Of a stretch of 64,000 bases of DNA, positions 252 to 63,895 are shown piece after piece; within the stretch, counting starts at the first letter, position 1, and every line of letters starts with the position of its first letter. This stretch comes from a virus. Its lineage: Duplodnaviria; Caudoviricetes. The notes below the pieces were generated by a model, which searched no databases, was not told the origin of the DNA, and saw nothing but the letters and a program-made list of their open reading frames with translations. The stretch is from positions 128,001-192,000 of the IMG/VR virus record IMGVR_UViG_3300037067_013225; one strand, given 5' to 3'. A program made the translations under genes and the position numbers.

Positions 252-1706
252 ATGGTCTTGGTTCAAGATGATTTTTCTATTAATTGTCCTTTTAGGACGA
301 TATCGGCAGGTTCGCCCGATGACTTATTTCTGGGCCAAATTGATATGCGGGCAGACGAAGGTATCGTTACAGATGCCACAGATGGCGCGACATTCCGCGC
401 AACAATCCCGACAGAACTTGTAACTACGCAACTAGGTTCCGATAATTATGAGGTCTGGTCGGATAACGAAGGCACTGCCAGCCAAGTAGATTATCATAAT
501 TTCGTAGACTATATTAAGCTATATGTTACGAATACTGGCGATGAAAACGCCATTGATCCACGACTATCAATAACGGGGGTTATGAAGCCCACAGATACCA
601 ATGTCACAGATATCTATTCCTTGTATGCGGCATTGGGATTCGTTGATGATGCCGACTATATGGAGCGTTCAACGACTAGTGTTGCAAACGATTACGCAAA
701 TGGGACACGTGAAGGATTCCCCTCATATGCCTTTAATTCATCCGATGTCACAGATCACTTATCCGGTATCAAAGTGGCGGAAGATATCGTTAACTGCGGC
801 CTCGGCTCTAATGCATTATTCGGTGCTCATAAAGTAATCCGCAAAATAGATCAAGACTCAGATCTATATCAAGAGAACAAATCACTACGTGCATCTTGGA
901 CAGGATCGCCCACGCCGTTTAAATTATATGCTATTGGAGAAACCAATAGAGCCATCGTGATAGGATTAGTGACCCCTGGAACCGATCCTGATGAAACATT
1001 ATTCATTGATGCGTTTTCACCATATGCGAATATTTATTTTCAGAAAATATATGGTATTGTAGCCATCAAGAGCACCGAAATCATCACATGCTGGAATGAT
1101 ATCACTAAAGATAAGCTATATACACCGAATGTCGATATAGATATTGAGTGGAAATTATCAACCAGTTCTACATGGGCGAATTGGATTACACTTACTACAT
1201 CAATGGCGTATTCTTTGACGTTCTTTGATGAGCGTATCATTTATTATGGTTCAAATCAGAATCTCATTGTTTCGTCTAATGCTTATGGATTACATCAGAC
1301 ACGTCTTCACACAACAACTAATTCTACTGTATTGATAAGTGAGCCTGGTGATTGGTCCGTGAATCCTAGCGATGATCAAATCGGTTATATTGATTTCTCG
1401 TCGCCGGGAGTTGATCTGACCGATATTAAATTGGGTGATAGAGCCTTGGGGGTGGACAGTGCTGGTGATGTGTATGATTTAGGGTGGATTGTAGATATTG
1501 GTGACACCCCATCTTATGGTACTCTTACAACCTCAATTTATCCTCAAGATAGTGCAGATTTAGCACCAACAAGTTTCGATTTAATTAAAATCATTGATGG
1601 GACACGTTCCAGGTTTGGATTTTGGTTCCGGCGTGAATGTGCATGTCAGGTAACTGCGCCTGCGGATTGTACTTATGATGCATATTTCCGAGTTACCTCT
1701 ACATAA
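252..1706 (+). CDS. hypothetical protein, probably virion structural
   Basis: 484-aa ORF, GGAG RBS upstream, Thr/Asp/Ser-rich, upstream of the fibre gene; no recognisable motif. Confidence 0.55.
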   Translation: MVLVQDDFSINCPFRTISAGSPDDLFLGQIDMRADEGIVTDATDGATFRATIPTELVTTQLGSDNYEVWSDNEGTASQVDYHNFVDYIKLYVTNTGDENAIDPRLSITGVMKPTDTNVTDIYSLYAALGFVDDADYMERSTTSVANDYANGTREGFPSYAFNSSDVTDHLSGIKVAEDIVNCGLGSNALFGAHKVIRKIDQDSDLYQENKSLRASWTGSPTPFKLYAIGETNRAIVIGLVTPGTDPDETLFIDAFSPYANIYFQKIYGIVAIKSTEIITCWNDITKDKLYTPNVDIDIEWKLSTSSTWANWITLTTSMAYSLTFFDERIIYYGSNQNLIVSSNAYGLHQTRLHTTTNSTVLISEPGDWSVNPSDDQIGYIDFSSPGVDLTDIKLGDRALGVDSAGDVYDLGWIVDIGDTPSYGTLTTSIYPQDSADLAPTSFDLIKIIDGTRSRFGFWFRRECACQVTAPADCTYDAYFRVTST

Positions 1707-1717
1707 TAGGACAATAT

Positions 1718-1945
1718 ATGCAACCGTTGTTAACACGCTATAAGATAATTTTATTTTCTCTGTCTGTATTCGGGATCATTGCGCTTACTGTGGTTGGTAC
1801 AGATTCGTATCGATTAATTTCTGGGCAGGCAACCGAATATAGCTCTACGTCATTGATGATTATTACCGCATTGGTTGGATTCTTTAGCGGTGTGGTTTCC
1901 GGATATGTGGAGGCCAAGAGGCACGAAGATAGTCCAGGCGCATAA
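1718..1945 (+). CDS. small two-TM membrane protein (holin-like)
   Basis: 75 aa, two hydrophobic stretches and a charged C-terminus; AGGA RBS. Confidence 0.45.
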   Translation: MQPLLTRYKIILFSLSVFGIIALTVVGTDSYRLISGQATEYSSTSLMIITALVGFFSGVVSGYVEAKRHEDSPGA

Positions 1946-4842: not shown

Positions 4843-7176
4843 ATGCCCAATATATCTGTGGTTATACCTGTTGGCCCTGGTTACGAGATCACAAAAAACT
4901 GTATCGAATCGCTTTTAAAGTATACAGATCTACACAATATCAATCTGATTGCTGTTATTAATGGCACAGAGCAAGAAACGTATGATTATCTTCACGACAT
5001 ACAACCCAAAGTCGAATTAATCACTTTAGTAGAGCCTTGGGGTTATACACGCGCAACTAACGCTGGCATTAAGCGAGCTTTAGAGAATGGGAGCGACTTC
5101 ATTATCTTATTAAATAATGATACGGTATTTTTAGAACAACAACCAAATACTTGGCTCGATCATCTTCTTAAACCGTTTAGCAATTCTGATGTCGGAATTA
5201 CAGGACCACTAATTAGACATGATGACGGATGCAATGAGGATTTTATCGTATTCTTCTGTGCTTGTATATCTGCCAAGTTATTCAGAGAAATCGGTGTTCT
5301 GGATGAGGTATTCAATCCGGGCGGTTTTGAAGATGTTGATTTCTGTATTAGAGCGCGGCAAGCCGGTTATAAAATAGTCCAGGTTCCCGATGATAGAATT
5401 TTTGAGAACTATGCCACCGGTGTATTCCCAATATTCCACATGGGAGAGCAAACCGTTTCTAAAATTCCCAACTGGAACGGCATCTTTGAAAGAAACCGTG
5501 TTGTGTTAAAAGAAAAATATACAATTAAACCAAATCATAATGATGGTCCGACTATCGGTACAAATGATCCGATTTCACATCGCGAATTTACTAGATATAA
5601 TTGGTGCAGAGAAAAAATCGAATCAACTTTCGGTAAAACGGCGGGATTACGTGTTTTAGATCTGGGTATGTCGTCTGGATACGGACAAAGGATATTACCT
5701 ACAGATATCGACTATGAGGGATGGGATATCAGTCAAGATATTATCGACTATGCTCGTCGTGAATTTCCACGGGGAAGATATCGGAAATTTGATCTGGAAA
5801 AGGATATTATCGATGGACAATGGGATGTGATTTTGGCCCTCGAAATCATTGAACACCTGGATAACGGATTGAGACTGGTCCAGGCTCTAAAGAATCATTG
5901 CAAATTATTATTGGTATCTGTACCAGAAAAAGATTCCGGTATATGGGGGGATTATCATAAATTACTCAACCTAACGGCAAAAGATTTTCCCGGATTCGAT
6001 ATCACAACTTATAGTCGGTTTAGTGGTGAAAGGATCATCAATACAATGTATGATGGATTTGAGAACCTATTTTTATCGTGGCCGCAAACCAAAAAGCATA
6101 TTCTGGTGGATGTTTGTACTAAAGATCGCTATTTCTCAACATTACCCATGACTTTAAGTTCCATAATTACACAAACCGTAACACCCGACAAAATTATTAT
6201 TGTGGATGATGGAGAGCAACGAGATTTGCGCCAGGTTCCTATTTATTCACATCTATTTCAGATGATGGCCGAAAAAGGTATAAATTGGTATATTGCATTC
6301 GGGCAAAAACGTGGGCAACATTATGGTCATCAAATGGTACAAGATATCGCAATAAATGAGGGGTATGATCTGGTTTGGCGGGTAGATGATGACACCGTTT
6401 CGGAACCGGATTGTCTAGAAAAACTTCTACACTCATGGAATCCGCATGTTGGTGCGGTGGGTGGAAGAATTTTAACACCCCCAACCAGGCTAGCACCGTC
6501 CAATCAACTGCAAGGCTCTATAAAAAATACCCAAGACAATCCCCAATGGTATAAGAATAATCCATGTTATACCGTTAATACGCAATCTATTGATAACGAT
6601 ATCGATGTAGATCATCTACATTGTTCATTTATATATCGTCCAGGTATAGCTGAGTATAATTTAGCGTTATCACCTGTAGCGCATACAGAGGAAACACAAT
6701 TCACTTACGAGATCAAACGTGCTGGCTATAGGGTGGTATTTCAACCGCAAGCGATAACATGGCATTTACGCAATCCCGAAGGCGGTATTAGATCACATTC
6801 AAATCAGGCATTTTATGATCACGATATCAAGATATTTAACAACAAACTCGCATCTTGGGGTATAGATGCGCCAACAACACCAGATATCAAGATTATCTGG
6901 TTGAAAACCGGTCTTGGCGATCATTTAGCTTTAAGCACATTAATACCGGAATTGGTTGCAAAATATGGCAAACTACATATCGTTTGTACATTGCCGGATG
7001 CGTTTTACGACATGAATGATATTTTTGTAGAGCCTTGGCCTGGGACAAAAGCTCTACAAATGGGATATACGCCACCTCCGGACGAAGAAATAAATATTTA
7101 TGTTTTTATGAAGAATAACAATTGGACAAATTCTCTCATTGATGCATATCGTGTATTTTATGGACTTGATAAATGA
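4843..7176 (+). CDS. multidomain glycosyltransferase: GT2 - SAM methyltransferase - GT2 - partial GT9-like domain
   Basis: ISVVIP..LLNNDT..FEDVDFCIR (GT-A); VLDLGMSSGYG and LEIIEHL (class I MTase); IIIVDDG, RVDDD, HTEET (second GT-A); GLGDHL near the C-terminus. Confidence 0.8.
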   Translation: MPNISVVIPVGPGYEITKNCIESLLKYTDLHNINLIAVINGTEQETYDYLHDIQPKVELITLVEPWGYTRATNAGIKRALENGSDFIILLNNDTVFLEQQPNTWLDHLLKPFSNSDVGITGPLIRHDDGCNEDFIVFFCACISAKLFREIGVLDEVFNPGGFEDVDFCIRARQAGYKIVQVPDDRIFENYATGVFPIFHMGEQTVSKIPNWNGIFERNRVVLKEKYTIKPNHNDGPTIGTNDPISHREFTRYNWCREKIESTFGKTAGLRVLDLGMSSGYGQRILPTDIDYEGWDISQDIIDYARREFPRGRYRKFDLEKDIIDGQWDVILALEIIEHLDNGLRLVQALKNHCKLLLVSVPEKDSGIWGDYHKLLNLTAKDFPGFDITTYSRFSGERIINTMYDGFENLFLSWPQTKKHILVDVCTKDRYFSTLPMTLSSIITQTVTPDKIIIVDDGEQRDLRQVPIYSHLFQMMAEKGINWYIAFGQKRGQHYGHQMVQDIAINEGYDLVWRVDDDTVSEPDCLEKLLHSWNPHVGAVGGRILTPPTRLAPSNQLQGSIKNTQDNPQWYKNNPCYTVNTQSIDNDIDVDHLHCSFIYRPGIAEYNLALSPVAHTEETQFTYEIKRAGYRVVFQPQAITWHLRNPEGGIRSHSNQAFYDHDIKIFNNKLASWGIDAPTTPDIKIIWLKTGLGDHLALSTLIPELVAKYGKLHIVCTLPDAFYDMNDIFVEPWPGTKALQMGYTPPPDEEINIYVFMKNNNWTNSLIDAYRVFYGLDK

Positions 7177-7877: not shown

Positions 7878-9052
7878 AAATCGTCATCATAATGCCATCT
7901 TTAAATAGACCAGACTATCATTGTATTATCGAGAAATGTATTCAAGAACAAATATTTGATGGTGAAATTGAATTATTAATCGCTGAAGAAAAATGGTCTT
8001 TGGATGATCACGGCTCTAGAGTCAAAAATGCTAAATATATCGAGTTGAATTGTGACAATGATAGAATATTATCTTTGCATGAGAAATATAATGCGTTAAA
8101 TAAAGCTGCTATCGAGAGTGGTGCAGATTATATCATTCAGATGGATTCCGATAATTATTTTGGTCCAAACTATATCCGAAAAGCTATAAATATCTTGCAG
8201 CAATCGAAAAAAGATTTCCTCTGTCACGATAGTTATTATTTATACGACATGATTAATGATAATTGTGGATTTTGTAACACAGAAGTATTAAACTGGACGG
8301 GACATTTTTGTTACACACCATATATCGTGAATATTCTCATTAATGCACAAATAGATAATAAATCGCATCTAGATCGACACCTAAATTATGACAAAACAAT
8401 ATTCGGCCTGGTGCTGGAATTTGCCGGAATGAAACGTATGACATCCACGGACGATCTTAACAAAGATTGGCTCCAGATACGTCACGGTGCAAACGGAACA
8501 GTCCAACCATATATAACATGGGGTGTTGATGATATCGTTTTATCGGATATCGTTTGCGATAAAGATATTTTAGATTTTTATCATGCGCATAATCAGACTA
8601 AAATAACTAATCAGATTTTAATTGCGCCATGGTCCAATGCACTTCCCGATGGACGGACAAATGCAAAAAATTACCCGTATTGGAGGGAACTTGTTGCTCT
8701 ACTAAAGCCGCATTACCATGTCACTCAGATTGGTCGTATGGGTGAGAAGGAATTATGCTCAGATGTGAGATTTTACTACGATATAAGACAGATTGCTGAT
8801 TTGTTACGCCAAGCCGATACTTTTATTTCCGTGGATAGTTTTCTACCACATTTGGCGCACAAAATTGGTAAATCTGGGATTGTTTTGTTTGGTCAATCCG
8901 ATCCAAACATATTCGGCTATGATGAAAATATCAATCTGCTAAAGGATCGTAACTATTTACGTCCGAATCAGTTTGAAATATGGGATAATTGTGAATATAA
9001 TAGGGAAGCTTTTGTAGAGCCGGAAGCGGTTTTACGCGCTTTAGGAGTATAG
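7874..9052 (+). CDS. glycosyltransferase: GT2-like domain plus C-terminal half of a GT9-like domain
   Basis: IIQMDSDN (DxD); AKNYPYW..FISVDSFLPHLAH..GIVLFG resembles the heptosyltransferase C-domain. Confidence 0.7.
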   Translation: MKIVIIMPSLNRPDYHCIIEKCIQEQIFDGEIELLIAEEKWSLDDHGSRVKNAKYIELNCDNDRILSLHEKYNALNKAAIESGADYIIQMDSDNYFGPNYIRKAINILQQSKKDFLCHDSYYLYDMINDNCGFCNTEVLNWTGHFCYTPYIVNILINAQIDNKSHLDRHLNYDKTIFGLVLEFAGMKRMTSTDDLNKDWLQIRHGANGTVQPYITWGVDDIVLSDIVCDKDILDFYHAHNQTKITNQILIAPWSNALPDGRTNAKNYPYWRELVALLKPHYHVTQIGRMGEKELCSDVRFYYDIRQIADLLRQADTFISVDSFLPHLAHKIGKSGIVLFGQSDPNIFGYDENINLLKDRNYLRPNQFEIWDNCEYNREAFVEPEAVLRALGV

Positions 9053-9053: not shown

Positions 9054-9293
9054 ATGATACAAATGGACGACTATATTGTGGATTTAAAGACACGTATTGG
9101 TACCATGTTTGAGAAATTTCAAGAGGTAGCGGCTCTACTAGATGATACGAATCGCGAAATAAAAAGACTCACATCATATAGGACAGATATATCGCATGAA
9201 ATTGAGAAATTACGATCCGCCATCATGTCCAAAGCGGAAGAATATGAGGCTATAACTGGTGAAGAGTACCAATTTAATACCGAAAAAGAATAA
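9054..9293 (+). CDS. small coiled-coil protein
   Basis: 79 aa, heptad pattern, AGGAG RBS. Confidence 0.5.
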   Translation: MIQMDDYIVDLKTRIGTMFEKFQEVAALLDDTNREIKRLTSYRTDISHEIEKLRSAIMSKAEEYEAITGEEYQFNTEKE

Positions 9294-10323: not shown

Positions 10324-11853
10324 ATGCTGACGAAAAAAGAACGCGAAAAGATGGATTTAGATAATTTTGCACAGAAATGCGCATCAAGTATCAAGAATGC
10401 CTCTCCGACAGCCCTAGTTCTTAATCCTCCCAACGAATGGAGCGAGAATCAACTTGAGGAAGCTTTTGTTAAATCGGTAGAAGCCGTAGCTTATCTTTGC
10501 GATCAGATAGACGATAACGATATCGAGAGATTTGTTAGAGCCGGGGACGGTTCTTTTAAGAAGGCCACTCAGGGTATTTTGCGAGACCACAGTTTTGATC
10601 CTAAACTTCGTAGGCAAAATTGCGCCGTTCTGTTACGCAAAAGTGTCTGTACGGGTGATCTGACAGCGCATGAAAAGCATCTTGTAGTTGCGCTAAACAA
10701 TCAGATTCAGGAAATTCTTTCGAATCAGGGTAATCGTGTTAGTACGCGGTTCGTAGATAAAATCGCTGATTACTTTTCTAAAGGTCAAGGCTCTACAAAA
10801 AATATTAAAACCGAAGTTAATAAAGAAATTATGTTCCAAGCTATGGAGAATCTCGTCCATTCTCCACAAGGCAAACTCCTAGACTATATCAAGGCACCAT
10901 TTCAATACAATCTAGATACAGATAAATGGGATTTCGAAGATGAAATGCCGGATGATCTAAGAACTGATGAATCGGATGAAATTACCACATCTGCACCGCC
11001 ATCAGTTTTGGCATCCACAGCGCCATCTCAGCGTGGGATGTCAGGCAATATTCCGAAACAGGGAAACGATATCGATTTAATTTTAAACGCATTAAATCCG
11101 CAAAAATCAGCTTACGGTGATAACACGCAGATTAGTTTAAATCGGCGTGTCATTGCGGGTGATGGTGATTCGGATGTTATGGGGATTCATGGCGGAGACG
11201 GATCTAATTTAGCGCAGATTGCGTTAGGATCTGTGGGAAAGTTTGTTGGTGTCCAAAGTCATCCGCAGCATTTTACGCATGTAGAAAATACCAGAAGTCC
11301 ACATAAGAATGTCGTAGAATCAAGCGATTTCTTCCGCACACGCGCCCATCAGGCTAACGAAATGAATAGTGCGACAGTTCCGGAAGGAATGACAAAATTC
11401 CATAGAGATGCAAATCCGTCTGGTCGTAGAAACTACTATCCTACGGAATCTTTGGCTGCTGGCGATGGTCGCAATGACATTGTTGGTGCTGATGGAAGTT
11501 CTCGCGCATCTGGAACCATCAATGGTGACGAAGTTACAAATGGCGTTCTGAAGGCGGTTGAAGGATTTTTGGGCAGATCTGCCGATTCGACGATGAATCA
11601 GATGGAATCAAACATTCCCTCGCCAATACAGTCCGGTGTGCAACAGTTGGCCGGTGCTGCTGATACAGCATCGTTAGCTTCTCCAATGGGTCGCGCTGGA
11701 CAAACCATTGGTGCAATGATTCCGCAACCCGCGATAGATGCCGCTACAAAACCACTAGCAGGCATTGCGGATAATTTGGCATCTCGCGCTCTAAAAACTA
11801 TAGGTAATTTGGGCGATCAAAGCACAAATTTTATCCAGCCCGGTCTGGAATAG
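10324..11853 (+). CDS. hypothetical protein; N-terminal part of a possible -1 frameshift fusion
   Basis: 509 aa, AAGGA RBS; A_AAT_TTT heptamer just before the stop. Confidence 0.6.
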   Translation: MLTKKEREKMDLDNFAQKCASSIKNASPTALVLNPPNEWSENQLEEAFVKSVEAVAYLCDQIDDNDIERFVRAGDGSFKKATQGILRDHSFDPKLRRQNCAVLLRKSVCTGDLTAHEKHLVVALNNQIQEILSNQGNRVSTRFVDKIADYFSKGQGSTKNIKTEVNKEIMFQAMENLVHSPQGKLLDYIKAPFQYNLDTDKWDFEDEMPDDLRTDESDEITTSAPPSVLASTAPSQRGMSGNIPKQGNDIDLILNALNPQKSAYGDNTQISLNRRVIAGDGDSDVMGIHGGDGSNLAQIALGSVGKFVGVQSHPQHFTHVENTRSPHKNVVESSDFFRTRAHQANEMNSATVPEGMTKFHRDANPSGRRNYYPTESLAAGDGRNDIVGADGSSRASGTINGDEVTNGVLKAVEGFLGRSADSTMNQMESNIPSPIQSGVQQLAGAADTASLASPMGRAGQTIGAMIPQPAIDAATKPLAGIADNLASRALKTIGNLGDQSTNFIQPGLE

Positions 11854-12767: not shown

Positions 12768-13718
12768 AACTATAAATCCCTTTTTCATTTTGATATCGTT
12801 GCAGAAGAAATCCCATACATGTCTGACACGATCCATATTGGTGAAATCGATATTTGCTAGCTGCCTATTTATACATAAATCATATAATAGAGCCGAAGCA
12901 TTTTGTTTACTGAAACGAAGGTTGGAAAATGTTTTGTCGGTAATTTTATCTTGTTCGATTGTCACATTCTTCCCGCTAAAAACACCGCGACCCAGGCTTA
13001 TGATGGGTGTTGAATGAGCCAAGGCTTCAAAAATATATGAGCTATTTATAGACACCAAGGCTCTACTAGATTTTAATAATTGATGGTTCAACTGCCAATT
13101 ATCCATATCATTCTCTATACGATCAATGTAATGTATTCTGTTATGCTGATATAACCGATGCCCATGATGAGATTTAGGGTGTTGTTTTACCACCAAGGTA
13201 TAATCTGAGGGCATATATTGTACCAGATCTCTCAAAATACGTTCAAAATTCTGCGCATAGGCCGGTGCATCATATTTGATTACTGAATCAGCTAGATGTT
13301 GAATCGGAAATAGAATGAATGGCCCAGATACGGGTAATTGAGTAGGTGTTTCTTTATTCCAGTAATGTTGATCTAAATACTCGTCAAGTTGTTGTTTTTG
13401 CTCGTTCGTAATGGGGGTTGAGGTGGTTTGTGCGGCACTGGAAGATGCGCCGTGACCCAGGCTATCTAGTTGAGTGGAACTGTAATGGGGTAAAAATCCG
13501 CATTCTAGATAAGCTAAGTTGGGAAAAGTCGGATGAGCGTTATGGTATATTTTTCGATATGGCCCAGCCCAGATTAGAAACAAATTATCTGGTTGTTGTT
13601 CTATGCGTCGCGGGAAGGTTAAAAGAGACTCTTGAGTTAATTTTGTCTGATAACCCAGTGCGTTTAGAAAAACTGCCACATTCGCGGCAGCTTTATTACG
13701 ACTATAGATTACGATCAT
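12762..13718 (-). CDS. KpsS/KpsC-like capsule polysaccharide glycosyltransferase
   Basis: LECGFLP, PIQHLADS, VKQHPK, SINSSYIFEAL, ISLGR match the KpsS-type motif order. Confidence 0.7.
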   Translation of the reverse strand: MIVIYSRNKAAANVAVFLNALGYQTKLTQESLLTFPRRIEQQPDNLFLIWAGPYRKIYHNAHPTFPNLAYLECGFLPHYSSTQLDSLGHGASSSAAQTTSTPITNEQKQQLDEYLDQHYWNKETPTQLPVSGPFILFPIQHLADSVIKYDAPAYAQNFERILRDLVQYMPSDYTLVVKQHPKSHHGHRLYQHNRIHYIDRIENDMDNWQLNHQLLKSSRALVSINSSYIFEALAHSTPIISLGRGVFSGKNVTIEQDKITDKTFSNLRFSKQNASALLYDLCINRQLANIDFTNMDRVRHVWDFFCNDIKMKKGFIVK

Positions 13719-25602: not shown

Positions 25603-25607
25603 ATTTA

Positions 25608-48320: not shown

Positions 48321-49193
48321 ATGCTCAAACAATTTATTGAAGGTAGGCCGTTGTCGGCCACCAATATGAAAACATTCGCGTCATGTCCCCGCCGTTTTTA
48401 TTATAAAATGACTGGCGTACCAGAAGAATATATCGGGAACCAATTATTGCTGGGTGGTGCATTACATTCGGCGGCAGAGACGTTTTTTAGAAACAAGAAT
48501 TATCCCGTACAGGTTGTTGTGGGCAATTTTATTCTGGATTATGAATCGCGATATGACGCATATAAACAAGCAGGTCAAAAGGTATTTTATCGCAGCGGAT
48601 CGCCCCGTAAAGACAAAGCGGAAGGTGCAGGTATGTTGGAGGGATTTTGCGAGGAATATAGATCCCTGCCATGTGTAGAGCCGGAATGCGAGATGATTGC
48701 GGACGTAACAATTGATGGTTATACGGTGAGACTTTATGCCGGTATAGATGTGGTTGTAGAAGATGCAGATTATTTTGGTATATACGATATCAAGAGTGGG
48801 AAATCTGCGCCAACCGATATCTACTTAAAGCATGACATGCAATTGGGTCAATACGCATATGTATTTCGACATGGAAGTTTTTGCACCTTAGACAAACAGA
48901 CCAAGCAACTGACAAGTAGAAAGGCTCTATTTGATCCACTATCCAAGCCTCTCAAATATAAAGGTATTTACAACATACGCGGATATCTAAAACAGCCGTT
49001 TACATCACATCAGGTGGAATTTCGAACCGAAGAATTTGATGAGGATAATTTTTTATTAACGTTACACGCCCTAATAAAAGAAATGGAGCTATATTCCCAG
49101 ATCAATTATTGGCCTAAACGCGGTATTGGATCTGTTCACGATTGTTCTTGCGCATATTGTTCCTATAAAGAGAAGTGCCAAGGGGAAGTGTAA
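48321..49193 (+). CDS. PD-(D/E)XK exonuclease (RecB/Cas4-like)
   Basis: SCPRRF, GGALH, AGID, IYDIKSG, QLGQY, C-terminal CAYCSYKEKC. Confidence 0.8.
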   Translation: MLKQFIEGRPLSATNMKTFASCPRRFYYKMTGVPEEYIGNQLLLGGALHSAAETFFRNKNYPVQVVVGNFILDYESRYDAYKQAGQKVFYRSGSPRKDKAEGAGMLEGFCEEYRSLPCVEPECEMIADVTIDGYTVRLYAGIDVVVEDADYFGIYDIKSGKSAPTDIYLKHDMQLGQYAYVFRHGSFCTLDKQTKQLTSRKALFDPLSKPLKYKGIYNIRGYLKQPFTSHQVEFRTEEFDEDNFLLTLHALIKEMELYSQINYWPKRGIGSVHDCSCAYCSYKEKCQGEV

Positions 49194-49516: not shown

Positions 49517-49836
49517 TAAATGATGATGTATTAAATCGCGATAATTTTGCGTGCTGTTATTGCGGGAGATCTTCGCGTGAAGTTCACCACATCGTGTATA
49601 AATCGCATTGCAGCAAAACAGATCCGCTAAGGGAGGCGCTAAGAAATAAAATAACAGTATGTAGTAAACATCATAATCAGTTACATCGGGGAATGCTAAT
49701 TGTAGTATATTTTAGAGCCGAAGCGGCACGCCCACGCATCATTTTGCGCCAGCAGCTACCACGTTATATAGACAGGCTAGATTCCTACGTGCAAAACGGG
49801 AAAACCACTTGCATAACGGACGAACCTGTGGTATAA
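49495..49836 (+). CDS. HNH endonuclease
   Basis: RDNFACCYCG..EVHHI..N.ITVCSKHH. Confidence 0.75.
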   Translation: MDGDRFLINDDVLNRDNFACCYCGRSSREVHHIVYKSHCSKTDPLREALRNKITVCSKHHNQLHRGMLIVVYFRAEAARPRIILRQQLPRYIDRLDSYVQNGKTTCITDEPVV

Positions 49837-50391: not shown

Positions 50392-51597
50392 GAGGATGTT
50401 GATGATTGTAACTATACCGATTCTTCTAAATAATGATGTTGTACAGGCTCTTTCCAGTACGTTGCGTGATTCGTGTATTACACAGCTAAAAGAAAACGCA
50501 GAATGGAAGGTATTTTATCCGGCAAAATTAAAACCGGCAGATTATTCGTTTGTCGATTTCAAAACGGAAATTTGTTCCGAAGATAATACGAAACAAATAG
50601 CGTTAATTAGGTATATGCTGGATACCCTGCCCTTGGCTCTAAAAAATAGACCAGATATCATTGTGGGGGAATAAAATGACGTTAAGGAATTTTTTTAATA
50701 AAGAATTGGAGAGGATGTATGGCGATGGTTCGGGTAAAATTAAGCTAAAGTCAGGGGATTTATATTTTCGCGTTACACGGAATCATCGTGCGACACAGAT
50801 TGGTCCACTTGAATGGCAGTACGAAGATCTTGGTTGGAACGTTTTTTCTTTTGACGGATATCCCGATCTAAAACCGCACTTTCGTAGAGCGGAATCATAT
50901 ATTACGGAGTCTTTAAATGAACGATTTCACATGAATCTTAATTTACATATAGAGGATTTATAGGAAGTGACAATGAAGGTTAAAATGACATTGGAATGCA
51001 CATTCGATATTGACGAGCGTTATTGGTGTGACGATATGGATGAGGAGGAATGGAATGCGTATAATAGTGGCGAGTTTGCAATGCCTCCAGAAGTATCAAA
51101 GGCACTCGAAGAGAGAATTAAAAATCTATCTTTAGATGCAGGTTGTATTGATATAGATGGTTGCGGCAATACAATAGCTATTCCGACAAATGCGAAATTC
51201 GAGGTTATTGCACCAAAATTAAAGAGTAAGAAATGAAAGAATTTATTATTGTTGTTATGAATAATGGAACCTCCTGTACAACGATGGATTCGGGGGCATA
51301 TTTTGATCCGAATTGGGAAGGTCCAAGTACAGATTGGATATCTTATATACATAGTCGGATGAAGGCGCATGATGACGATACGATACGTGCGGTAACAATC
51401 TGTCTGGCGAAAGAGATGGCGGAAAAATCTAATGGTTGTGTTGATGGTTCGTATTTGATAGAAATACACGATGACAATACGATACATTGTGTTGCAAAGG
51501 TCCAGCCAACCGTAAAGCTTATGTTAACGCAAACGAATATGGATGGCGAGATATTATCTGTTACAGAACCCAATACTGTTAAATCGGGAGATGCTTA

Positions 51598-52248
51598 GTG
51601 GAGAAGGTTGTTTGTATTGCTAATGGATTGATCCCAGATGGTATATATTTAGCCGGACATGCTGATTTTGATGCAATTTTAAGTAAAATTGGTAGAGCCA
51701 GATTCCTAGCATTACGTGACAAAGCTGACAAAACAGAATTCGCTCTAGAAAATAATACCAGCATTCGACAATTGATCACGTATATCGTGGTTCAGGACGG
51801 CAGAAATCTGTTTATCTATCGTAGGACATCCGGTACGGGAGAAAAACGTCTAGCGGGCTTGTATGCGCTTCCTGGAGGCCATATGAACGCCATGAGTAGT
51901 GATTTTTTATCCGATATTTCCTATGATGCTACACGCGAATTAAGAGAGGAATTGGATATTAGACAATTAGATCCGGTATTTCATGAAGATGGCACATTGC
52001 TTCCGTTTAAGATTTTGGGAATATTACAGCAATCATGTGTCGTCGATGCTAATCTGGTTAATCTGGTACATACTGGAATTATTGTGAAATACAATATTAC
52101 GGATCGTTTTAATGTCAGCGTTAGAGAATCGGGAAAGATGTGTGATTTAACACAGGTCAACGAGTATAATTATTCCGATTATTTCAAGGAGAGTGAATCT
52201 TGGTTGCAAAATCTGCTACCACTGTTTCCCCAGCTAATAACGATGTAG
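51598..52248 (+). CDS. NUDIX hydrolase
   Basis: RQLITY, GEKRL, PGGHMN..ATRELREELDI, VHTG. Confidence 0.75.
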   Translation: MEKVVCIANGLIPDGIYLAGHADFDAILSKIGRARFLALRDKADKTEFALENNTSIRQLITYIVVQDGRNLFIYRRTSGTGEKRLAGLYALPGGHMNAMSSDFLSDISYDATRELREELDIRQLDPVFHEDGTLLPFKILGILQQSCVVDANLVNLVHTGIIVKYNITDRFNVSVRESGKMCDLTQVNEYNYSDYFKESESWLQNLLPLFPQLITM

Positions 52249-53501
52249 TGCTGGAAAAGGTATATGTTACTCGAACTGCCACACACAGTTCTAGCAGGAT
52301 GGTTATTTGGGAATTATCCGATGGAACATTTGTGCGACTATATTTTAACACTAATGGCGAAGTGCATTGTTCTAGAAAAGAAAATATGTCATTTATGGAT
52401 AAATTTATTAGAGAGCACGATTCATATGTGGTTTATCAGAAAAATGGTAAGATAGACGTACCGACACCGGATTGGTATGATTCAGATATCCCGCTAAACG
52501 AATCGCCACCGCAAATATTAGAGCAGGGGGAGGTTCCACAAATCCGTGGAAAACGTGGTAGGCCGAAAACAAATAAAAGGCCCACCAAAGCGGTACTCGA
52601 AAGTTGTTCACAGCATCCCACATATCATGGATTGAGAAAACCTCACATTCCCTGTGAAGAATGTTTGGCCCTGTATGATAAAAAACAAGGAGAAAAACAT
52701 GGCAAATAACGTAACGACACCGGTGCAACCGGCCAAAATCGATCCCGAATTAATCAAGACTCTAGTGTCTAAGATGAACGGTACGGTTGAGATTGCAAAC
52801 GGGCAAGTCAAAATCAATTGTTCCGTCCCGTTGGATGAAATTCTTAAACTAGTGCTCAAGTAACCCAGGCTCTATTAGACTCCAATAGAAAGCACATCAT
52901 TAAGGACACTAGCAGCAATGAACATGATCATCGATGAATCAACGTTAGATAAATTTCTAGCGGATTTAGCACCGAAATTGCCGTTTACGATATCGGATTC
53001 GTGGATTGAGGCAAATTCATACATTGGGATTAGTCTGCATTTCGATGGTAAAAAGGTTAAGTTAAAAATTATACCACAAGTGCTTGACGGTAAATTAGCT
53101 TTTCGTATAGATAAGGCTTTTTTGGTCGGAATCAATATTAATGTTGCACCATTATTATCTAAATTGGAGAATTATATAAATGCCAACATTCCTCAGCCTC
53201 TACAAAATCTTATAAAAATGGACAACCATACTCTTGTTGTGAATATACCGACTAAGTTTGCGGGTGTAACGGCTAAAGCGGAAATCTTTATCGGATTTTA
53301 AAATGCGTGGAAATATCAGCGACAAGAATTTGTTGAAACGTGAACGCAGAATGTTCCGTAGAATAAATCGTTATGGGAATCCGCATCGATATGGATTGCT
53401 GATGCACATAGCCACAGAATACTGGATATATGAGGTTACTGAGAGATATCGAACCACAATGCGTTTGCGCCCTAAATTCAAACGTAGCACAAATAAATTA
53501 A

Positions 53502-54241: not shown

Positions 54242-55195
54242 TTGTTTATACAAAGGTGGTCGATGGATAATTTTCATGGCCCTTGGCTAAATTTTGAAGT
54301 TCCAAACGAGCAGATATCTTTAGATTCCATTGATAGAGCCGATGCGGCATCATATGGGAAGGAACTCCTCATATATCGGTTGCGAGAACATGGTGATTAT
54401 TACGGATATTTGCCCGAAATAGATAAAAATCGGTTCACATCCAACGAACTAACAACAATCGCTAACAATCCGAACAACATCAGTAATCCAGATACGTATA
54501 TGAAAATCGGATCACCAGCCAAGAATGCTCTATTATTTCGCGGCCTACAGACACACAATCTTGACAATCTGCGTCCCGATGAACTACCCACGATACGATT
54601 TAGTTTGGAACGGTTCAAAGGGAACAACAGCATTATGAGCTTGGTGCAGGATAGTAGCAATAATCTGCAAATGGCCTATTGGATGATGAAAACCAAGCTA
54701 TTCGATACGGCAGACAAAAAGGTATCGCAATCCTTCAATGCCCTATTTCAGCAGGAAAATGCGCTAACTAGATCATTGATGGACGATGATATCGAACCGG
54801 TAGATACTTACGATTTAGAATATCTGGATAAGTTGCGCAAAACTAAAATGTTGCGATCCGAAACCGATTTTGCAAATTATATCGCAAAAGATAAACTGGG
54901 ATTTATTTCGGGTGGATTGGGTGGTATATCTAAGCCATCGGTAACGAATATGTTATCTGTTAGAGCCTTTGCTACAGATAATCGCAGACAATTTTCACAT
55001 ACCAATCCGGCAGATTATATTCGCGATATCGGAACAAAGGATTATATTAATTATCGTTTTGAAGTCGTTACGATAAATCATGATGATTACTTAGAAGTGC
55101 AGTGGAGTTTCCCGCAATCAGACCGCTTGGCTCTAACAAATGCAGGTGAATCATGGACGCAAGCGGATCTAATCAAACTATATGCTAAGGTATAA
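54242..55195 (+). CDS. hypothetical protein
   Basis: 317-aa ORF, no motif recognised. Confidence 0.55.
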   Translation: MFIQRWSMDNFHGPWLNFEVPNEQISLDSIDRADAASYGKELLIYRLREHGDYYGYLPEIDKNRFTSNELTTIANNPNNISNPDTYMKIGSPAKNALLFRGLQTHNLDNLRPDELPTIRFSLERFKGNNSIMSLVQDSSNNLQMAYWMMKTKLFDTADKKVSQSFNALFQQENALTRSLMDDDIEPVDTYDLEYLDKLRKTKMLRSETDFANYIAKDKLGFISGGLGGISKPSVTNMLSVRAFATDNRRQFSHTNPADYIRDIGTKDYINYRFEVVTINHDDYLEVQWSFPQSDRLALTNAGESWTQADLIKLYAKV

Positions 55196-55822
55196 GGAAT
55201 ACAAATGGAAATCGTACAAGATAATCGTCGTCAACAAACACTAGAAAAAATTAAAACGATTCTGGATGAGCAGGGTTTCCCAGAAGCTATTATTTGCCTT
55301 AAAGATAATGAGGGATCATCATTAACGCCCATGACGGAAGATATAGGTTACGTTTTGCATACCGCAACGACTATATTGCATCAGATATGTGGTATTGATG
55401 AGGAGAAAATTATAAACTTCTATAGGGGCGTGGGCATTTTGATTGATAATGCGGAAGAAGCACATGATGCAGAAGTTTAGAATCATTGCGATATGGTTTA
55501 TACCGCTTATTGCAGGATTGATATTATTTCTATTGCATATAGATGTATGGTTTTATGCGACTGTACCTATGGCATTTCTTGTATACGGGTGGATTTGCTC
55601 GGATGCAGGGGATTTCGCCGGATTTAAATCGGGATATCAATGCGGATTGGAAGAGGGCTGGGCAGACGCATCTAAGCGTTGGAGTGCAGTTATCAAACCG
55701 CTTATTGGGGATGTCTCCGAATATAGAGACGAATATAACAAGATCGTAGAAAAGATGGGAGAGCCGGAAGATAAAATAGCTGATACTGGCTCTCAAGGCT
55801 CTAATAAATCAAAGGAATAACG

Positions 55823-56828: not shown

Positions 56829-57148
56829 TGCAGCAAGGTGACGAAAAGATATTCCTCATCAACGAGAAAACATATATTACTCGATATGATTATATGGATA
56901 AAACTAATCCCAATTGTATGTGGAATAAATATGTGATTTTATCCGAGCCTTATTACTCATGGCGCAAAAAATATATATTCTCATATGTGGAAGAACAGTA
57001 TGAGAATCCGTCTAATGTTCGCGTTACTGTACATTTACATTATAATATTGTTATAGCTGAGCGAACGATTGATGAAACTATTGGTTTATTGGAACATTTT
57101 TATAAAGATTTTGGTAGAGCCGAAGACATGGTTATGATCGATTTTTAG
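56828..57148 (+). CDS. hypothetical protein, IDF-tagged
   Basis: 106 aa ending DMVMIDF. Confidence 0.7.
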   Translation: MQQGDEKIFLINEKTYITRYDYMDKTNPNCMWNKYVILSEPYYSWRKKYIFSYVEEQYENPSNVRVTVHLHYNIVIAERTIDETIGLLEHFYKDFGRAEDMVMIDF

Positions 57149-57494: not shown

Positions 57495-58381
57495 TTAATC
57501 TGCTCCAGTATTTCATAAGCTTTAGGTAAAACTCGCCGTTTGTTAGTGATTTGCATATATCCGCATTTGATTAGGTATCCCTCCTGATATCTAATCGTTT
57601 CAGGCGTTTCGTTAAGCATACCGCATAAAGCCGTCAAAGATAACGCATCATGCTCAACCAACAGGCGTAATATTTTGATATCCAATAAATCGATACCACC
57701 AGAATACAGATCGAGCGATTCGCAAACAGCATTGGCTCTATCCAAATCTACGCAGGGGATATTTCTAGCTATTTGATGCCGATGACATGCATTTAATGTT
57801 CTTATAATAGTTCTAGGAATACCTTTAGATCTGTTTACGATTTCTAGTAGAGCCTGGGGCGTTATATTTAGGTTTAATTTCCCCACATAGGTTTGTGCTA
57901 TTTCGTCCAGTTCATCCAGCGAATATTCCGTCATTTGGATACAATCCATCCTAGACAACAGGGGTTGCGGAATTACCGATTTGTTGTTCGATGCGATAAT
58001 CACGGAAAACTGCTTTTTATTGGGCAGATAATATTCCGTACCGTCATATAAAAAACGATCTTCCTCTAGTGCTGGGCGTAGAAAAGCATCGAGTGGTTTG
58101 TTGGGATGATTCCACTCTTCTAAGAAAATGATCAGGGGTTTGGCTCCCATGTGGGATGCCAAACATGCCAATATCTGTGCGGGTCGCGCATCTAATGCAT
58201 TAATAGTAACGATATCAGCACCGATTTCTTCAGCTACGGCGTGTGCGAACGTTGTTTTGCCGGTTCCGCCGACACCGCTTGCGAATAGCAAATGCGGGAG
58301 CCTTCCGGCATGCTGCGCATACAGGATGGATTCCGTTAATAGCGCTTTGGCTTTGGACTGGCCCACGAGTCCTGTGAACAT
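57491..58381 (-). CDS. ruvB: RuvB-like Holliday junction branch-migration ATPase (start revised to ATG 58381)
   Basis: LVGQ, LPHLLF, GGTGKTT, LRPALEE, PLLSR, YSLDEL, RSKGIPR, GIDLLD, EGYLIK. Confidence 0.75.
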   Translation of the reverse strand: MFTGLVGQSKAKALLTESILYAQHAGRLPHLLFASGVGGTGKTTFAHAVAEEIGADIVTINALDARPAQILACLASHMGAKPLIIFLEEWNHPNKPLDAFLRPALEEDRFLYDGTEYYLPNKKQFSVIIASNNKSVIPQPLLSRMDCIQMTEYSLDELDEIAQTYVGKLNLNITPQALLEIVNRSKGIPRTIIRTLNACHRHQIARNIPCVDLDRANAVCESLDLYSGGIDLLDIKILRLLVEHDALSLTALCGMLNETPETIRYQEGYLIKCGYMQITNKRRVLPKAYEILEQIK

Positions 58382-59118: not shown

Positions 59119-59513
59119 AAATCAATTTCCTGTAATGAATCCGCTTCAGGCTCTACCAAATCTCGCAGTAAGCACATGGTTTCTCCAGTCATTACATTTG
59201 AGGCAGTTTTCATATCATCGGAAAACCACTTTGTGTTGCGACGGCATTGATACCATGGTTTCTTTTCTGGATGATATTCTCTAACATCAATCCAATCATC
59301 GGGATTTCCATCCAGGGGTAGGATATTTTCGAAATTGGCTAACTTGGTGAATAAAGCTATCACAGCATCAGCGCTACCCCCCGAATGTTCCTGAGATGCG
59401 AATAATTCCATCAAATGCATTACACTGAGACGAATCAGACCGTCGTAATCTTCGTCGCCAGTCCCGGCATATAACAGGTCAAGCTCTCGCTGTGCGTGCT
59501 CTATTAAACTCAT
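59115..59513 (-). CDS. hypothetical phage protein, IDF-tagged
   Basis: 132 aa, MSLIEHAQREL..QEHSGGSA; ends SLQEIDF. Confidence 0.75.
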   Translation of the reverse strand: MSLIEHAQRELDLLYAGTGDEDYDGLIRLSVMHLMELFASQEHSGGSADAVIALFTKLANFENILPLDGNPDDWIDVREYHPEKKPWYQCRRNTKWFSDDMKTASNVMTGETMCLLRDLVEPEADSLQEIDF

Positions 59514-59810: not shown

Positions 59811-60431
59811 TTGCCGGGAGTAAAAATGCGTAATGCGCTAGAAATATCGGAACCGTTAATGCGTTTTGATTCCAGTTCCGGCGCAGCATGGATATATGAT
59901 GATATTACAACACATACAGTATTGGAAGTTAGTCGATTTCTGCGCGAAACATATGAAGCGCCAGTATTACAAATAGATATAAATAATAATCACGAACGGC
60001 GCGACATCATCCTGGAGATTATGTCCGGTGGTGGATGTGTCAAGAGTGCTCTATCAATTTACGATATGTTACGACGCACTTCCGAAGCGTTTAAACGTAA
60101 TGTTGCAAAACCACATATCATTACGGTGGGAGTGGGATTAATTGCATCTAGCGCCACTTTAATATTCGCTGCCGGTGATCAACGTCTAGCATACAAACAT
60201 ACAACATTTTTATTCCATCAACCAGAAATATTGGGATTATTTGGCGTTTCTGAACGCATCGCCCGTGAGGGCGAATATTTGCAAACGATAGAAACACAAA
60301 TGACTGCGATTTATAATTCCGTTATTAAAAAGAAAGGTATTGATATTGCGAAAAAGATTAAGGCAAAATCGGATCTTATTATTTCCGCGCAAGAAGCGCT
60401 TGAATGGGGATTGGTTACGGAAATTTTGTAG
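59811..60431 (+). CDS. ClpP-like serine protease (S14); likely start 59826
   Basis: IMSGGGCV..IYD, GLIASSAT (Ser), FHQP (His), SDLIISAQEALEWGLV (Asp). Confidence 0.85.
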   Translation: MPGVKMRNALEISEPLMRFDSSSGAAWIYDDITTHTVLEVSRFLRETYEAPVLQIDINNNHERRDIILEIMSGGGCVKSALSIYDMLRRTSEAFKRNVAKPHIITVGVGLIASSATLIFAAGDQRLAYKHTTFLFHQPEILGLFGVSERIAREGEYLQTIETQMTAIYNSVIKKKGIDIAKKIKAKSDLIISAQEALEWGLVTEIL

Positions 60432-60439
60432 AGCCGCGC

Positions 60440-61478: not shown

Positions 61479-61485
61479 GATCAAG

Positions 61486-61878: not shown

Positions 61879-62206
61879 CATGGAAGAAATCGTGTATCAT
61901 TTCTATGCATTAGATAGCGTACATCCCATAGATTTGGGAATATTTTCCAAATTGGGATATGTGCCGGATTCGTGTTTTATGATAGAGCCATCACAAACAT
62001 ATGACGAATGGATGGTGTATGGATTCGGCCCAAAACGATTACAAGGTTATGCGGGTCGCGGCAATTTGGCACCATGGTTTTTTAGAACTGCCGATAAGCC
62101 AACTTTTAATATTGAAGCGGCAAGTATTGAATCGCTTCTTTTGGCTATAAATGATTATATGATCGGTAGACACCCCATAAAAGAGTGGCAGGAGATTGAC
62201 TTTTGA
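61868..62206 (+). CDS. hypothetical protein, IDF-tagged
   Basis: 112 aa ending EWQEIDF. Confidence 0.7.
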   Translation: MIFSMEEIVYHFYALDSVHPIDLGIFSKLGYVPDSCFMIEPSQTYDEWMVYGFGPKRLQGYAGRGNLAPWFFRTADKPTFNIEAASIESLLLAINDYMIGRHPIKEWQEIDF

Positions 62207-62699: not shown

Positions 62700-62701
62700 A
62701 C

Positions 62702-62730: not shown

Positions 62731-62735
62731 CAGGT

Positions 62736-62915
62736 ATGCTTGAGTTGAACGAACTATTCTTGCGTTACCTCGCAATGGGGTTCGAGCCTGACGACGCAAT
62801 GTTATGGGCCAAGAACGAATTTGAGGACAAGAATGAGGATTGTTTAGAGGCAGAGGCTCTACAAAAAGATACTTGGGCAATCACAGATGATAATCTAAAT
62901 CTAGATGAATTATAG
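62736..62915 (+). CDS. small acidic protein (start revised)
   Basis: MLELNELFLRY..NLDEL, Asp/Glu-rich. Confidence 0.55.
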   Translation: MLELNELFLRYLAMGFEPDDAMLWAKNEFEDKNEDCLEAEALQKDTWAITDDNLNLDEL

Positions 62916-62923
62916 GAGATGAT

Positions 62924-63895
62924 ATGGATCTGCAAGATGTTAAAAATCTCGTTACAGCAACAGCACCACTACATGATATCAAGGTGCAATCCAGCGCAAT
63001 CTCTGCGCACGTAACACCCCATAAGCGTATTTATATCGTCCAAAAACATGGCGAAAATCGCATGAATCTACATATCGGGGCGGAACGACAGTTGTATCAG
63101 AAGATCGGATATCCGCAATCTGAACGTTTCACGTCAAAAATCGCCTGGGAAACCATGGATCGAATCATTGACGAATTATATTCCGCCACATACAAAAACG
63201 ACAAAGAACTTCTAATTCGTGCGGATAAAGAAAACGATACTGTTGTGGCATTTTTGTCCAATCGTTATAATCCCTATGATAATCGGGATTTGTTAACGAA
63301 TGTGGAAATTGGCCTATGTGATGTGGCATGGAATCAGGAAATTCACGACCCATATGTGAATGATTACAAGTGTTTGTTTAAGGTTATTTTCCCAGAACAT
63401 TCCGTTACAGATTCGGAAACCGAATTAAATCTGACACCGGGACTGTTTATCTCAAATGATGAAACGGGAAATGGAGCGGTGTATTGTAGTCAGGTTATTT
63501 CTCTAACATATGGAGAAAAACCCCTATATTTTTCTAACGTCAAACATATCAGCGCACAGCGAACCTGCCATACCAGCAAATATGTCGATGCCGCCAATGC
63601 GGTTGTAAAATCGTGCGAAACGCTCCCCAAATTTGCACGAGAATTTATTGCTACGATTCATGATGCGCAATCTCGCAAGCTTAATTTTACCGAATTGTCT
63701 GAGCTTTATGAATATATCGGTAAGACATTGGTTCGCAAGGATGAGGTTAGAAATATTCTCTCATTGTGGGATAATCAGAATCGATCATTATGGACATTGG
63801 GTTTGGCTATCTCTAGAGCCGCCTATGATTACAATCCGTTACGTCGTGCTGAACTTGAGAAACTTGCAACACAGATTTTGGTGAGGAAATATTAA
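62924..63895 (+). CDS. DUF932-like phage protein
   Basis: AFLSNRYNPYDN..GLFISNDETGNGA; AGGAG RBS. Confidence 0.6.
   Translation: MDLQDVKNLVTATAPLHDIKVQSSAISAHVTPHKRIYIVQKHGENRMNLHIGAERQLYQKIGYPQSERFTSKIAWETMDRIIDELYSATYKNDKELLIRADKENDTVVAFLSNRYNPYDNRDLLTNVEIGLCDVAWNQEIHDPYVNDYKCLFKVIFPEHSVTDSETELNLTPGLFISNDETGNGAVYCSQVISLTYGEKPLYFSNVKHISAQRTCHTSKYVDAANAVVKSCETLPKFAREFIATIHDAQSRKLNFTELSELYEYIGKTLVRKDEVRNILSLWDNQNRSLWTLGLAISRAAYDYNPLRRAELEKLATQILVRKY

Follow-up and report, generated by a model that had tools for sequence, protein, structure and literature searches.

In this study we describe a short DNA word, the heptamer TAGAGCC (GGCTCTA on the opposite strand), which is written throughout the genome of a tailed virus as a DNA-level signal overlaid on the protein code and kept there by selection. 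The analysed DNA is a stretch of 64,000 nucleotides (nt), hereafter the window, corresponding to bases 128001-192000 of the IMG/VR record IMGVR_UViG_3300037067_013225, a virus genome of 202,677 bp in one contig with 39.9% guanine plus cytosine (GC); coordinates are those of the window unless marked as genome. The record includes the structural genes of a tailed phage (portal, tail sheath and collagen-like tail fibre), and its source is an uncultured jumbo myophage; public phage records contain nothing closely related to it, and a megablast search of them with 20 kb gave no match. Sequence identical to this genome is present in contigs of one groundwater run and one landfill run, from which the record may derive. 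No literature on TAGAGCC or GGCTCTA as a motif was found, mentions being confined to unrelated mammalian studies.

Enrichment and reading frames

The window contains 61 exact copies of the word, 28 on the + strand and 33 on the - strand, compared with 3.2 +/- 1.8 (at most 8) in dinucleotide-preserving shuffles of the same DNA. A preliminary description, made from the letters of the window, had put the over-representation at about tenfold and the density at about one copy per kb, which is borne out by these values; all 60 coordinates that it gave are correct, and a single copy had been overlooked. The positions are as follows.

804-810 (-), TAGAGCC copy
947-953 (+), TAGAGCC copy
1439-1445 (+), TAGAGCC copy
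5030-5036 (+), TAGAGCC copy
5883-5889 (-), TAGAGCC copy
6514-6520 (-), TAGAGCC copy
7028-7034 (+), TAGAGCC copy
8012-8018 (-), TAGAGCC copy
9015-9021 (+), TAGAGCC copy
9131-9137 (-), TAGAGCC copy
10536-10542 (+), TAGAGCC copy
10789-10795 (-), TAGAGCC copy
12888-12894 (+), TAGAGCC copy
13059-13065 (-), TAGAGCC copy
16333-16339 (+), TAGAGCC copy
16544-16550 (-), TAGAGCC copy
17641-17647 (-), TAGAGCC copy
17857-17863 (-), TAGAGCC copy
19714-19720 (-), TAGAGCC copy
20918-20924 (-), TAGAGCC copy inside the ribonucleotide reductase gene
21094-21100 (-), TAGAGCC copy inside the ribonucleotide reductase gene
22201-22207 (+), TAGAGCC copy, convergent with the 22232 copy, 31 bp apart
22232-22238 (-), TAGAGCC copy, convergent with the 22201 copy
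23774-23780 (-), TAGAGCC copy
24422-24428 (+), TAGAGCC copy
25898-25904 (-), TAGAGCC copy
27130-27136 (-), TAGAGCC copy inside the DnaE gene
27777-27783 (+), TAGAGCC copy inside the DnaE gene
29376-29382 (+), TAGAGCC copy inside the DnaE gene
29847-29853 (-), TAGAGCC copy inside the DnaE gene
31598-31604 (+), TAGAGCC copy
35136-35142 (+), TAGAGCC copy
35948-35954 (-), TAGAGCC copy
36380-36386 (+), TAGAGCC copy
38203-38209 (+), TAGAGCC copy
38302-38308 (-), TAGAGCC copy
40496-40502 (-), TAGAGCC copy, the one overlooked previously
40649-40655 (+), TAGAGCC copy
44254-44260 (+), TAGAGCC copy
44686-44692 (-), TAGAGCC copy
45530-45536 (-), TAGAGCC copy
47414-47420 (-), TAGAGCC copy
48172-48178 (-), TAGAGCC copy
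48676-48682 (+), TAGAGCC copy
48923-48929 (-), TAGAGCC copy
49713-49719 (+), TAGAGCC copy
50635-50641 (-), TAGAGCC copy
51693-51699 (+), TAGAGCC copy
52868-52874 (-), TAGAGCC copy
54334-54340 (+), TAGAGCC copy
54961-54967 (+), TAGAGCC copy
55129-55135 (-), TAGAGCC copy
55797-55803 (-), TAGAGCC copy
57115-57121 (+), TAGAGCC copy
57734-57740 (-), TAGAGCC copy
57848-57854 (+), TAGAGCC copy
59149-59155 (-), TAGAGCC copy
60429-60435 (+), TAGAGCC copy
61983-61989 (+), TAGAGCC copy
62855-62861 (-), TAGAGCC copy
63814-63820 (+), TAGAGCC copy

The whole genome holds 186 copies (77 + and 109 -; 0.92 per kb), an enrichment of about 14-fold for a word whose length lets it occur by chance about once per 15 kb in total. 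The absence of strand bias that had been claimed earlier thus holds for the window (28/33) and not for the genome, where the - strand is mildly favoured (109 vs 77) in both gene orientations. Shuffling of synonymous codons within genes gave 43.9 +/- 4.2 copies (largest value 54) and permutation of whole codons 33.9 +/- 4.0, which places the observed 186 at z = 34-38 relative to codon-preserving shuffles whose expectations are already raised by the codons of the word itself. TAGAGCC is the top-ranked 7-mer genome-wide, and the next ranks are taken by its own overlapping sub-words; the sole independent runner-up is GATATCG, and no other independent 7-mer approaches TAGAGCC. The two outcomes that had been named beforehand as speaking against a signal (codon shuffles reaching about 60 copies, or other 7-mers equally enriched) were therefore not observed, the shuffles giving 34-44 copies against 186.

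The word occupies all reading frames permitted by coding, in both orientations and in similar numbers for the four main classes. When read in the same direction as the gene it is found in frame f1 (37 copies, encoding E-P) and frame f2 (40 copies, R-A), and when opposed in f0 (36 copies, G-S) and f2 (52 copies, A-L), which matches the different peptides (RA, EP, AL, GS) recorded in the preliminary description. The fifth class (opposed, f1), with only 2 copies, would need Leu(CTC)-Tyr preceded by Trp or by an Arg codon that is rare, and in the sixth the word would create an in-frame stop; the remaining 19 copies are intergenic. In total, 77 copies are co-oriented with their genes and 90 opposed. 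The choice of synonymous codons is bent towards the word: the Arg-Ala pair AGA-GCC occurs 46 times (10 expected), the Ala-Leu pair GCT-CTA 83 times (22 expected) and the Gly-Ser pair GGC-TCT 43 times (14.5 expected). As the enrichment survives codon-preserving shuffles, the codon pairs are biased in this manner and the flanks described below do not depend on frame, TAGAGCC is a signal at the level of DNA, in agreement with the core proposal of the earlier description.

Structure of the extended motif

The word is exact. In the genome, 17 of its 21 single-mismatch variants occur at 0.4-1.4 times expectation, and only three exceed 1.5 times (TAGAGCG 2.3, TAGGGCC 3.1 and TAGAGGC 1.8); TAGAGAC stands at 1.38 (21 vs 15.2 expected) and TAGATCC at 1.42 (48 vs 33.8). 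The variants TAGAGTC and TAGAGCT show no depletion. The form can be extended to T-NN-TAGAGCC-D, with T at -3 in 74% of copies and no C at +7, the latter following from the absence of GRGCYC from the whole genome. G is favoured at +9 and +10, and all of these preferences (T at -3, not C at +7, G at +9/+10) are kept in every frame class. The extension TAGAGCC-WW-G suggested previously is real, yet partial: TTG follows 47 of the 186 copies, and AAG follows 19.

The surroundings of the word differ on its two sides, the GC content being 34% at -30 to 0 and 44% at +7 to +37, and the word-bearing strand is G+T rich on either side, regardless of gene orientation. Upstream, blocks of T are centred at about -4, -13.5 and -24.5, i.e. 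with a phasing of 10-11 bp, and downstream there are G/C blocks at +9 to +12, +22 to +24 and +31 to +33; no flank signal was seen farther than about 40 bp from the word. The whole is a composite of about 70 bp with TAGAGCC as its exact core, consisting of phased T-tracts on the 5' side, T-NN-TAGAGCC-D, and a G/C-rich 3' side. Folding of the flanks for hairpins revealed merely small, composition-driven differences. The possibilities of a promoter and of a signal acting in RNA were both rejected, because the orientation of the word is unrelated to gene direction; in the case of promoters the intergenic copies were included.

Spacing and orientation

The copies are more evenly distributed than expected by chance. 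For all sites of the genome the coefficient of variation (CV) of the intervals is 0.80, against 0.99 +/- 0.07 by chance (P about 0.0008), and gaps shorter than 100 bp number 4 instead of the 16 expected; for 43 other 7-mers of like abundance the CV ranges from 0.83 to 1.44. The intervals are still more regular when each strand is considered by itself: CV 0.73 (P 0.0016) with a mean interval of 2.6 kb on the + strand, and CV 0.64 (P<0.0002) with a mean interval of 1.8 kb on the - strand, same-strand neighbours always being at least 176 bp apart. Per-strand intervals of 1.8-2.6 kb are on the scale of Okazaki fragments, and the existence of a separate even lattice on each strand suggests a directional process.

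Orientation switches between neighbours more often than expected (109 vs 90 +/- 6.6, P 0.003). The distance between neighbours is shorter when they converge (TAGAGCC followed by GGCTCTA) than when they diverge (median 585 vs 1002 bp, P 0.0014), in the block of minus-strand genes as well, and the closest convergent pairs are separated by 14, 31, 96 and 99 bp. Neither this closeness nor the excess of copies on the - strand is explained by any of the models considered.

Dialects in related phages

A large replication and recombination module lies within the window. Its polymerase and replication part comprises a DnaE-type polymerase, a MoxR-like AAA protein, an AEP primase and a DnaB helicase, its recombination part RecA, a Rad52-like annealase, SbcC, SbcD, a PD-(D/E)XK/Cas4-like nuclease and RuvB, and the same module also carries genes for a sigma factor, a ribonucleotide reductase and a Dam-family methyltransferase. 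A host origin of RuvB was ruled out by its 27% identity to bacterial proteins. The products of most concern here are the following (aa, amino acids).

23876-24613 (-), Dam-family (D12) N6-adenine DNA methyltransferase, the only DNA methyltransferase candidate of the genome
26976-30296 (-), DnaE-type DNA polymerase III alpha, 1106 aa, the module marker used to find relatives
35420-36337 (+), AEP primase-polymerase, 305 aa (Pfam AEP-TOTE, E 7e-17), the proposed reader of the word
42407-43624 (+), DnaB-family helicase, 405 aa (Pfam DnaB_C, E 5e-40)

Relatives were found through proteins of this module; they are more distant members of the family, with the same gene order and a shared AEP/MoxR/DnaE module. 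The nearest relative proteins are P0002 (DnaE, 81%), P0242 (RuvB, 78%) and P0253 (AEP, 68%), and a search for short fragments of the closest relatives found none. With DnaE as the query, the relatives from tblastn and IMG/VR scans all had at most 32.7% identity and none was enriched for TAGAGCC, while a metagenome scan matched only DnaE of bacterial type (30-35% identity). In the groundwater run, low-depth contigs are about 82% identical to the DnaE gene at 27928-28394 and 29062-29638, from which it follows that a sister phage co-occurs with this one.

In most relatives the top over-represented word has a TAGA core with differing flanks (TTTAGAG, AGATAGAG, TTAGACC), at about 0.5-3 copies per kb. 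Only 4-23 kb of sequence was sampled for each relative, so that individual P values are modest and the weight rests on the joint pattern. In L036 (35% GC), TTTAGAG ranks first among 7-mers, with 25 copies in 23 kb (6.8 expected), in both orientations and four frame classes, with a CV of 0.70. In L262 (37% GC), TTAGAC has 27 copies in 9 kb (4.4 expected) and GGTCTAA, in rank 1, has 14 (1.07 expected); this word, too, uses both orientations and four frame classes (CV 0.78). AGATAGAG ranks third among 8-mers in L038 and first in both L259 and L258; L038 and L259 (50% GC) come from one shared sample, and L258 has 35% GC. Each dialect word is enriched in its own genome only. Among 112 control loci with unrelated DnaE genes, a word containing TAGAG reached the top 3 in none and the top 10 in 3. 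The signal is specific to the phage lineage and strongly selected; its reader seems to be passed on within the phage family and to change as the family diversifies.

A candidate reader: the AEP primase-polymerase

The AEP protein is a plausible candidate for this reader. Its match to the NCBIfam PrimPol model is below the cut-off. Its AlphaFold2 model (mean predicted local distance difference test score 91.6) was matched by Foldseek to the CAPP Prim-Pol structures 7p9j/7nqd (E 2.5e-14, template modelling score 0.78-0.80 by target), so that a Prim-Pol fold, nearest to the CRISPR-associated Prim-Pol, can be predicted with confidence; a three-helix bundle predicted at the C-terminus (residues about 241-298) lies outside the match. 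No DnaG-type primase turned up among the proteins searched, mostly window open reading frames of at least 150 aa. The DnaB-family helicase is the likely partner of the AEP primase. At its C-terminal end there is a weak match to A2L_zn_ribbon (residues 299-329, E 0.0067, below the cut-off); a zinc ribbon at this place, if real, could aid template recognition by analogy with the zinc-binding domain of T7 gp4.

Prim-Pols begin with a purine on a pyrimidine template, beside a 3' base that is not copied (PMC10345425), and the CTCT template/AGAG primer of the word is consistent with this start rule. We infer the reader, the template strand and the primer start as follows. The AEP primase-polymerase, together with the DnaB helicase, would read the copies as start words of lagging-strand synthesis. 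The template strand would display 3'-ATCTCGG-5', of which the 3' A would be left uncopied, and the primer would start as pppA-G-A-G-C-C and be stabilised, short as it is, by extension into the GC-rich flank. The TAGA shared by the dialects would then represent the uncopied base and the first three bases of the primer. Because a 7-nt word arises so rarely by chance, lagging-strand synthesis would favour genomes in which both strands carry it many times at even distances, and recognition would drift with the primase, leaving relatives with different words around a common TAGA start.

Taking into account that the signal is at the level of DNA, directional, needed both ways along the genome and unrelated to transcription, start words for the AEP primase, setting intervals of Okazaki scale, are the best fit to the observations, and we propose this tentatively, as something possible and not yet probable. 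The wider proposal, of a family of uncultured jumbo phages whose lineage-private primase start words of 6-8 nt begin with TAGA, co-evolve with the AEP protein and are spaced by selection on each strand, is also put forward with reserve.

Several points weigh against this interpretation. The link between primase and word is circumstantial, and known primase sites have cores of 3 nt for which genome-wide enrichment is unreported. The 10-11 bp phasing of the upstream T-tracts is not predicted by a primase model and suggests recognition or bending of double-stranded DNA; equally unpredicted are the closer convergent neighbours (585 vs 1002 bp median) and the excess of sites on the - strand. One relative, L261, has the same module with an AEP protein 45% identical, but none of its words is clearly enriched: the best, GAATATC, is borderline and unevenly spaced, in a genome of 31% GC where short words of TAGA type exceed 2 per kb by chance. 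Moreover, replication genes served to find the relatives, so the reader could be any of the proteins that the family conserves.

Alternative explanations

The phasing of the flanks, with T blocks about 10-11 bp apart and G/C blocks downstream, is what would be expected of a phage protein that binds double-stranded DNA for architecture, condensation, packaging or partition, wrapping or bending about 60-70 bp per site at kb intervals. The even spacing, the tendency of convergent neighbours to pair and the dialects, which suit a reader encoded by the family, point in the same direction. We consider such a binder unlikely, since architectural proteins seldom demand an exact word such as this one, of which most near-misses are unenriched; the bias of the flanks belongs to one strand (rich in T and in G, not plainly A/T or G/C rich); each strand has its own even lattice, suggestive of a directional process; and no candidate protein was identified. 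Quite doubtful, in our estimation, is a Chi-like signal that would switch a host helicase-nuclease of the RecBCD/AddAB/AdnAB type from degradation to repair, with both orientations guarding a circularly permuted linear genome at either end. TAGAGCC resembles Chi in being an asymmetric exact 7-mer, the most over-represented word of its genome, on a G+T-rich strand, and its density of about 1 per 2 kb in each orientation is close to that of Chi in LLS, a phage rich in these sites (one per 1.86 kb; PMC12315714). However, Chi-rich phages are strongly polar (LLS 20:3, MD8 32:0) and lack recombination modules (PMC12315714), whereas the orientations alternate here without polarity (77:109 in the genome, 28:33 in the window) and genes for RecA, a Rad52-like annealase, SbcCD, a Cas4-like nuclease and RuvB are present in the phage itself. 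Flank dependence and phasing of this kind are not features of Chi, and relatives of 35-50% GC, probably with different hosts, all use words with a TAGA core. A bacterial genome enriched in the word was not found among the matches listed from a scan of 185,579 species genomes with a 16-mer form of the word, which is a weak negative: these matches are scattered across phyla, the loci around them show no enrichment, and the one genome with two matches has a density of 0.12 per kb. In five bacterial genomes checked in full the density was 0.05-0.33 per kb, and the densest of them contained 56 copies against 49.9 predicted by composition, without the flank pattern.

That the word marks positions where one strand of virion DNA is nicked, as happens in T5, tf and the phiKMV group, might be suspected from the exact asymmetric word with its fixed flank (T at -3), which recalls the tf site 5'-TACT/RTGMC-3' (PMC3517423), and from the presence of HNH-like proteins. 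Nevertheless, the sites of tf, T5 and the phiKMV group are confined to one strand (PMC3517423) and those of TAGAGCC are not; nicks at the convergent copies 14, 31, 96 and 99 bp apart would break the duplex, and a density of one per kb, kept by selection, has no explanation in what is known of nicks, all of which makes this function very unlikely. There is hardly more than a slight chance that the word is a target of DNA modification, or that mutation, biased repair or avoidance of restriction sites produced it in passing. Its exactness recalls the specificity of restriction-modification systems, restriction pressure on this genome is extreme (seventeen 6-bp palindromes and GRGCYC are absent), and the absence of GRGCYC accounts for the missing C after the word; but a modification target need be neither enriched nor evenly spaced, the undepleted TAGAGTC and TAGAGCT argue against a drive by repair of the very-short-patch type, and the loss of GAGCCC could account for no more than about 30 additional GAGCCD, as opposed to 186 TAGAGCC. 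The only DNA methyltransferase candidate belongs to the Dam family. Dam-family enzymes read short palindromes containing GAT, and this protein, a distant DPPY member of the family that reaches only 50 bits against TIGR00571 dam (cut-off 115) and has no relative in the PDB, is an unlikely reader of an asymmetric 7-mer. Thus, from the list of functions offered in the preliminary description, the Chi-like and nicking roles are weakened and that of a methyltransferase target has become unlikely, and the best fit, primase start words, was absent from it.

Comparison with known systems

Primase sites have been described for T7 gp4 (3'-CTG-5' core, GGGTC/TGGTC), for pRN1 ORF904 (GTG) and for the Nanoarchaeum primase (PMC10345425, PMC10250227). 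TAGAGCC has in common with these a short strand-specific form, a primer that would start with a purine on pyrimidine template, next to a 3' base perhaps left uncopied, a requirement on both strands at intervals of Okazaki scale, and a specificity that varies between related replicons. The known cores, however, are of 3 nt, frequent by chance and without described genome-wide enrichment or even spacing, whereas TAGAGCC is an exact 7-mer with flanks, about 14-fold enriched and with family dialects. Like Chi in Escherichia coli phage LLS and Pseudomonas phage MD8, it is the commonest oligomer of the genome, asymmetric, at about one per 2 kb (PMC12315714; PMC3784561); the sites of LLS and MD8 are, in contrast, the Chi of the host, in a nearly single orientation and clustered near one end, in phages lacking recombination genes. 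With the nick words of tf, T5 and the phiKMV group (7-9-mers; PMC3517423) it shares the exact asymmetric form scattered over a lytic phage genome. Those words occur on one strand with 4-14 sites per genome (tf has 14 in 46 kb, all of them in its top strand; PMC3517423), while TAGAGCC has 186 copies on both strands, including close convergent pairs.

HIP1 (GCGATCGC) of cyanobacteria is likewise a hyper-abundant word written through coding sequence. It is a palindrome of host chromosomes and tied to methyltransferases, unlike TAGAGCC, which is asymmetric (its reverse complement differs from it) and private to the phage, in whose genome CGATCG is totally absent. The uptake signal sequences (USS) of Pasteurellaceae and the DNA uptake sequences (DUS) of Neisseriaceae occur about once per kb, in both orientations, within genes in all frames and evenly spaced; they consist of a core with helix-phased AT tracts on one side and form lineage-specific dialects. 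Their place is in chromosomes of bacteria with natural competence, where a pilus protein of the competence machinery reads them. TAGAGCC resembles them in density, use of both orientations, even spacing and extended flank, and differs in residing in a tailed-phage genome, with no bacterial genome carrying the word found among the matches listed. None of the described systems (Chi, USS/DUS, nick sites, HIP1, stoperators) accounts for a signal that is family-wide, strand-aware and evenly spaced, and we would group TAGAGCC with primase sites as a variant of their logic; the second choice is a separate class of phage genome punctuation that has not been described before.

Other features of the genome

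Seventeen 6-bp palindromes, each expected 13-66 times, have zero copies in the 202.7 kb: AGGCCT, AGTACT, CAGCTG, CCCGGG, CCGCGG, CGATCG, CGGCCG, CGTACG, CTCGAG, CTGCAG, GAGCTC, GCCGGC, GGCGCC, GGGCCC, GTCGAC, GTGCAC and TGGCCA. GGATCC has one copy and GRGCYC none. The 17 palindromes and GGATCC are absent or nearly absent in relatives of 31-50% GC (L036, L038, L258, L261), and L262 has 5 copies in all of the 18; this is restriction avoidance throughout the family, on an unusual scale. Another hexamer, GATATC, is in excess (319 copies vs about 66 expected genome-wide), with all three frames enriched (176/60/58) and random spacing (CV 1.08). A partnership with TAGAGCC was rejected (31 co-occurrences within 60 bp vs 35 expected); the excess of GATATC could relate to the Dam/EcoRV-family methyltransferase at 23876-24613.

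In every relative the DnaE gene is adjoined by a conserved protein of 500-550 aa, without a Pfam family and with a weak PHROG match to HNH endonucleases, located as follows.

31209-32858 (-) of the window, conserved DnaE-adjacent protein
8454-9992 of L036, the corresponding protein
850-2412 of L038, the corresponding protein
5757-7271 of L261, the corresponding protein

Genome 32577-34109 encodes a protein with a similar HNH match that may be a paralogue. Metagenome contigs link window positions 24997-25606, 26614-26665 and 30374-30920 to one another, and read depth rises four- to five-fold at 30008-30674; the contig joins and the rise in depth suggest a repeated low-complexity coding segment (GCAGCA-type) common to several genes or organisms.

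Significance

Should a protein other than the primase be the reader, the data would still define a family-wide, strand-aware and evenly spaced signal. If the primase interpretation is true, thousands of codon choices would be constrained by the virus in order to place replication start signals, and priming, hence the length of Okazaki fragments, would be hard-wired in the text of the genome, related viruses having changed the word yet kept its density. This would add a new selective layer to phage coding sequence and provide a sequence signature predicting primase specificity and grouping uncultured phages. It would represent a virus-owned layer of DNA 'punctuation', of a density comparable to that of uptake sequences.

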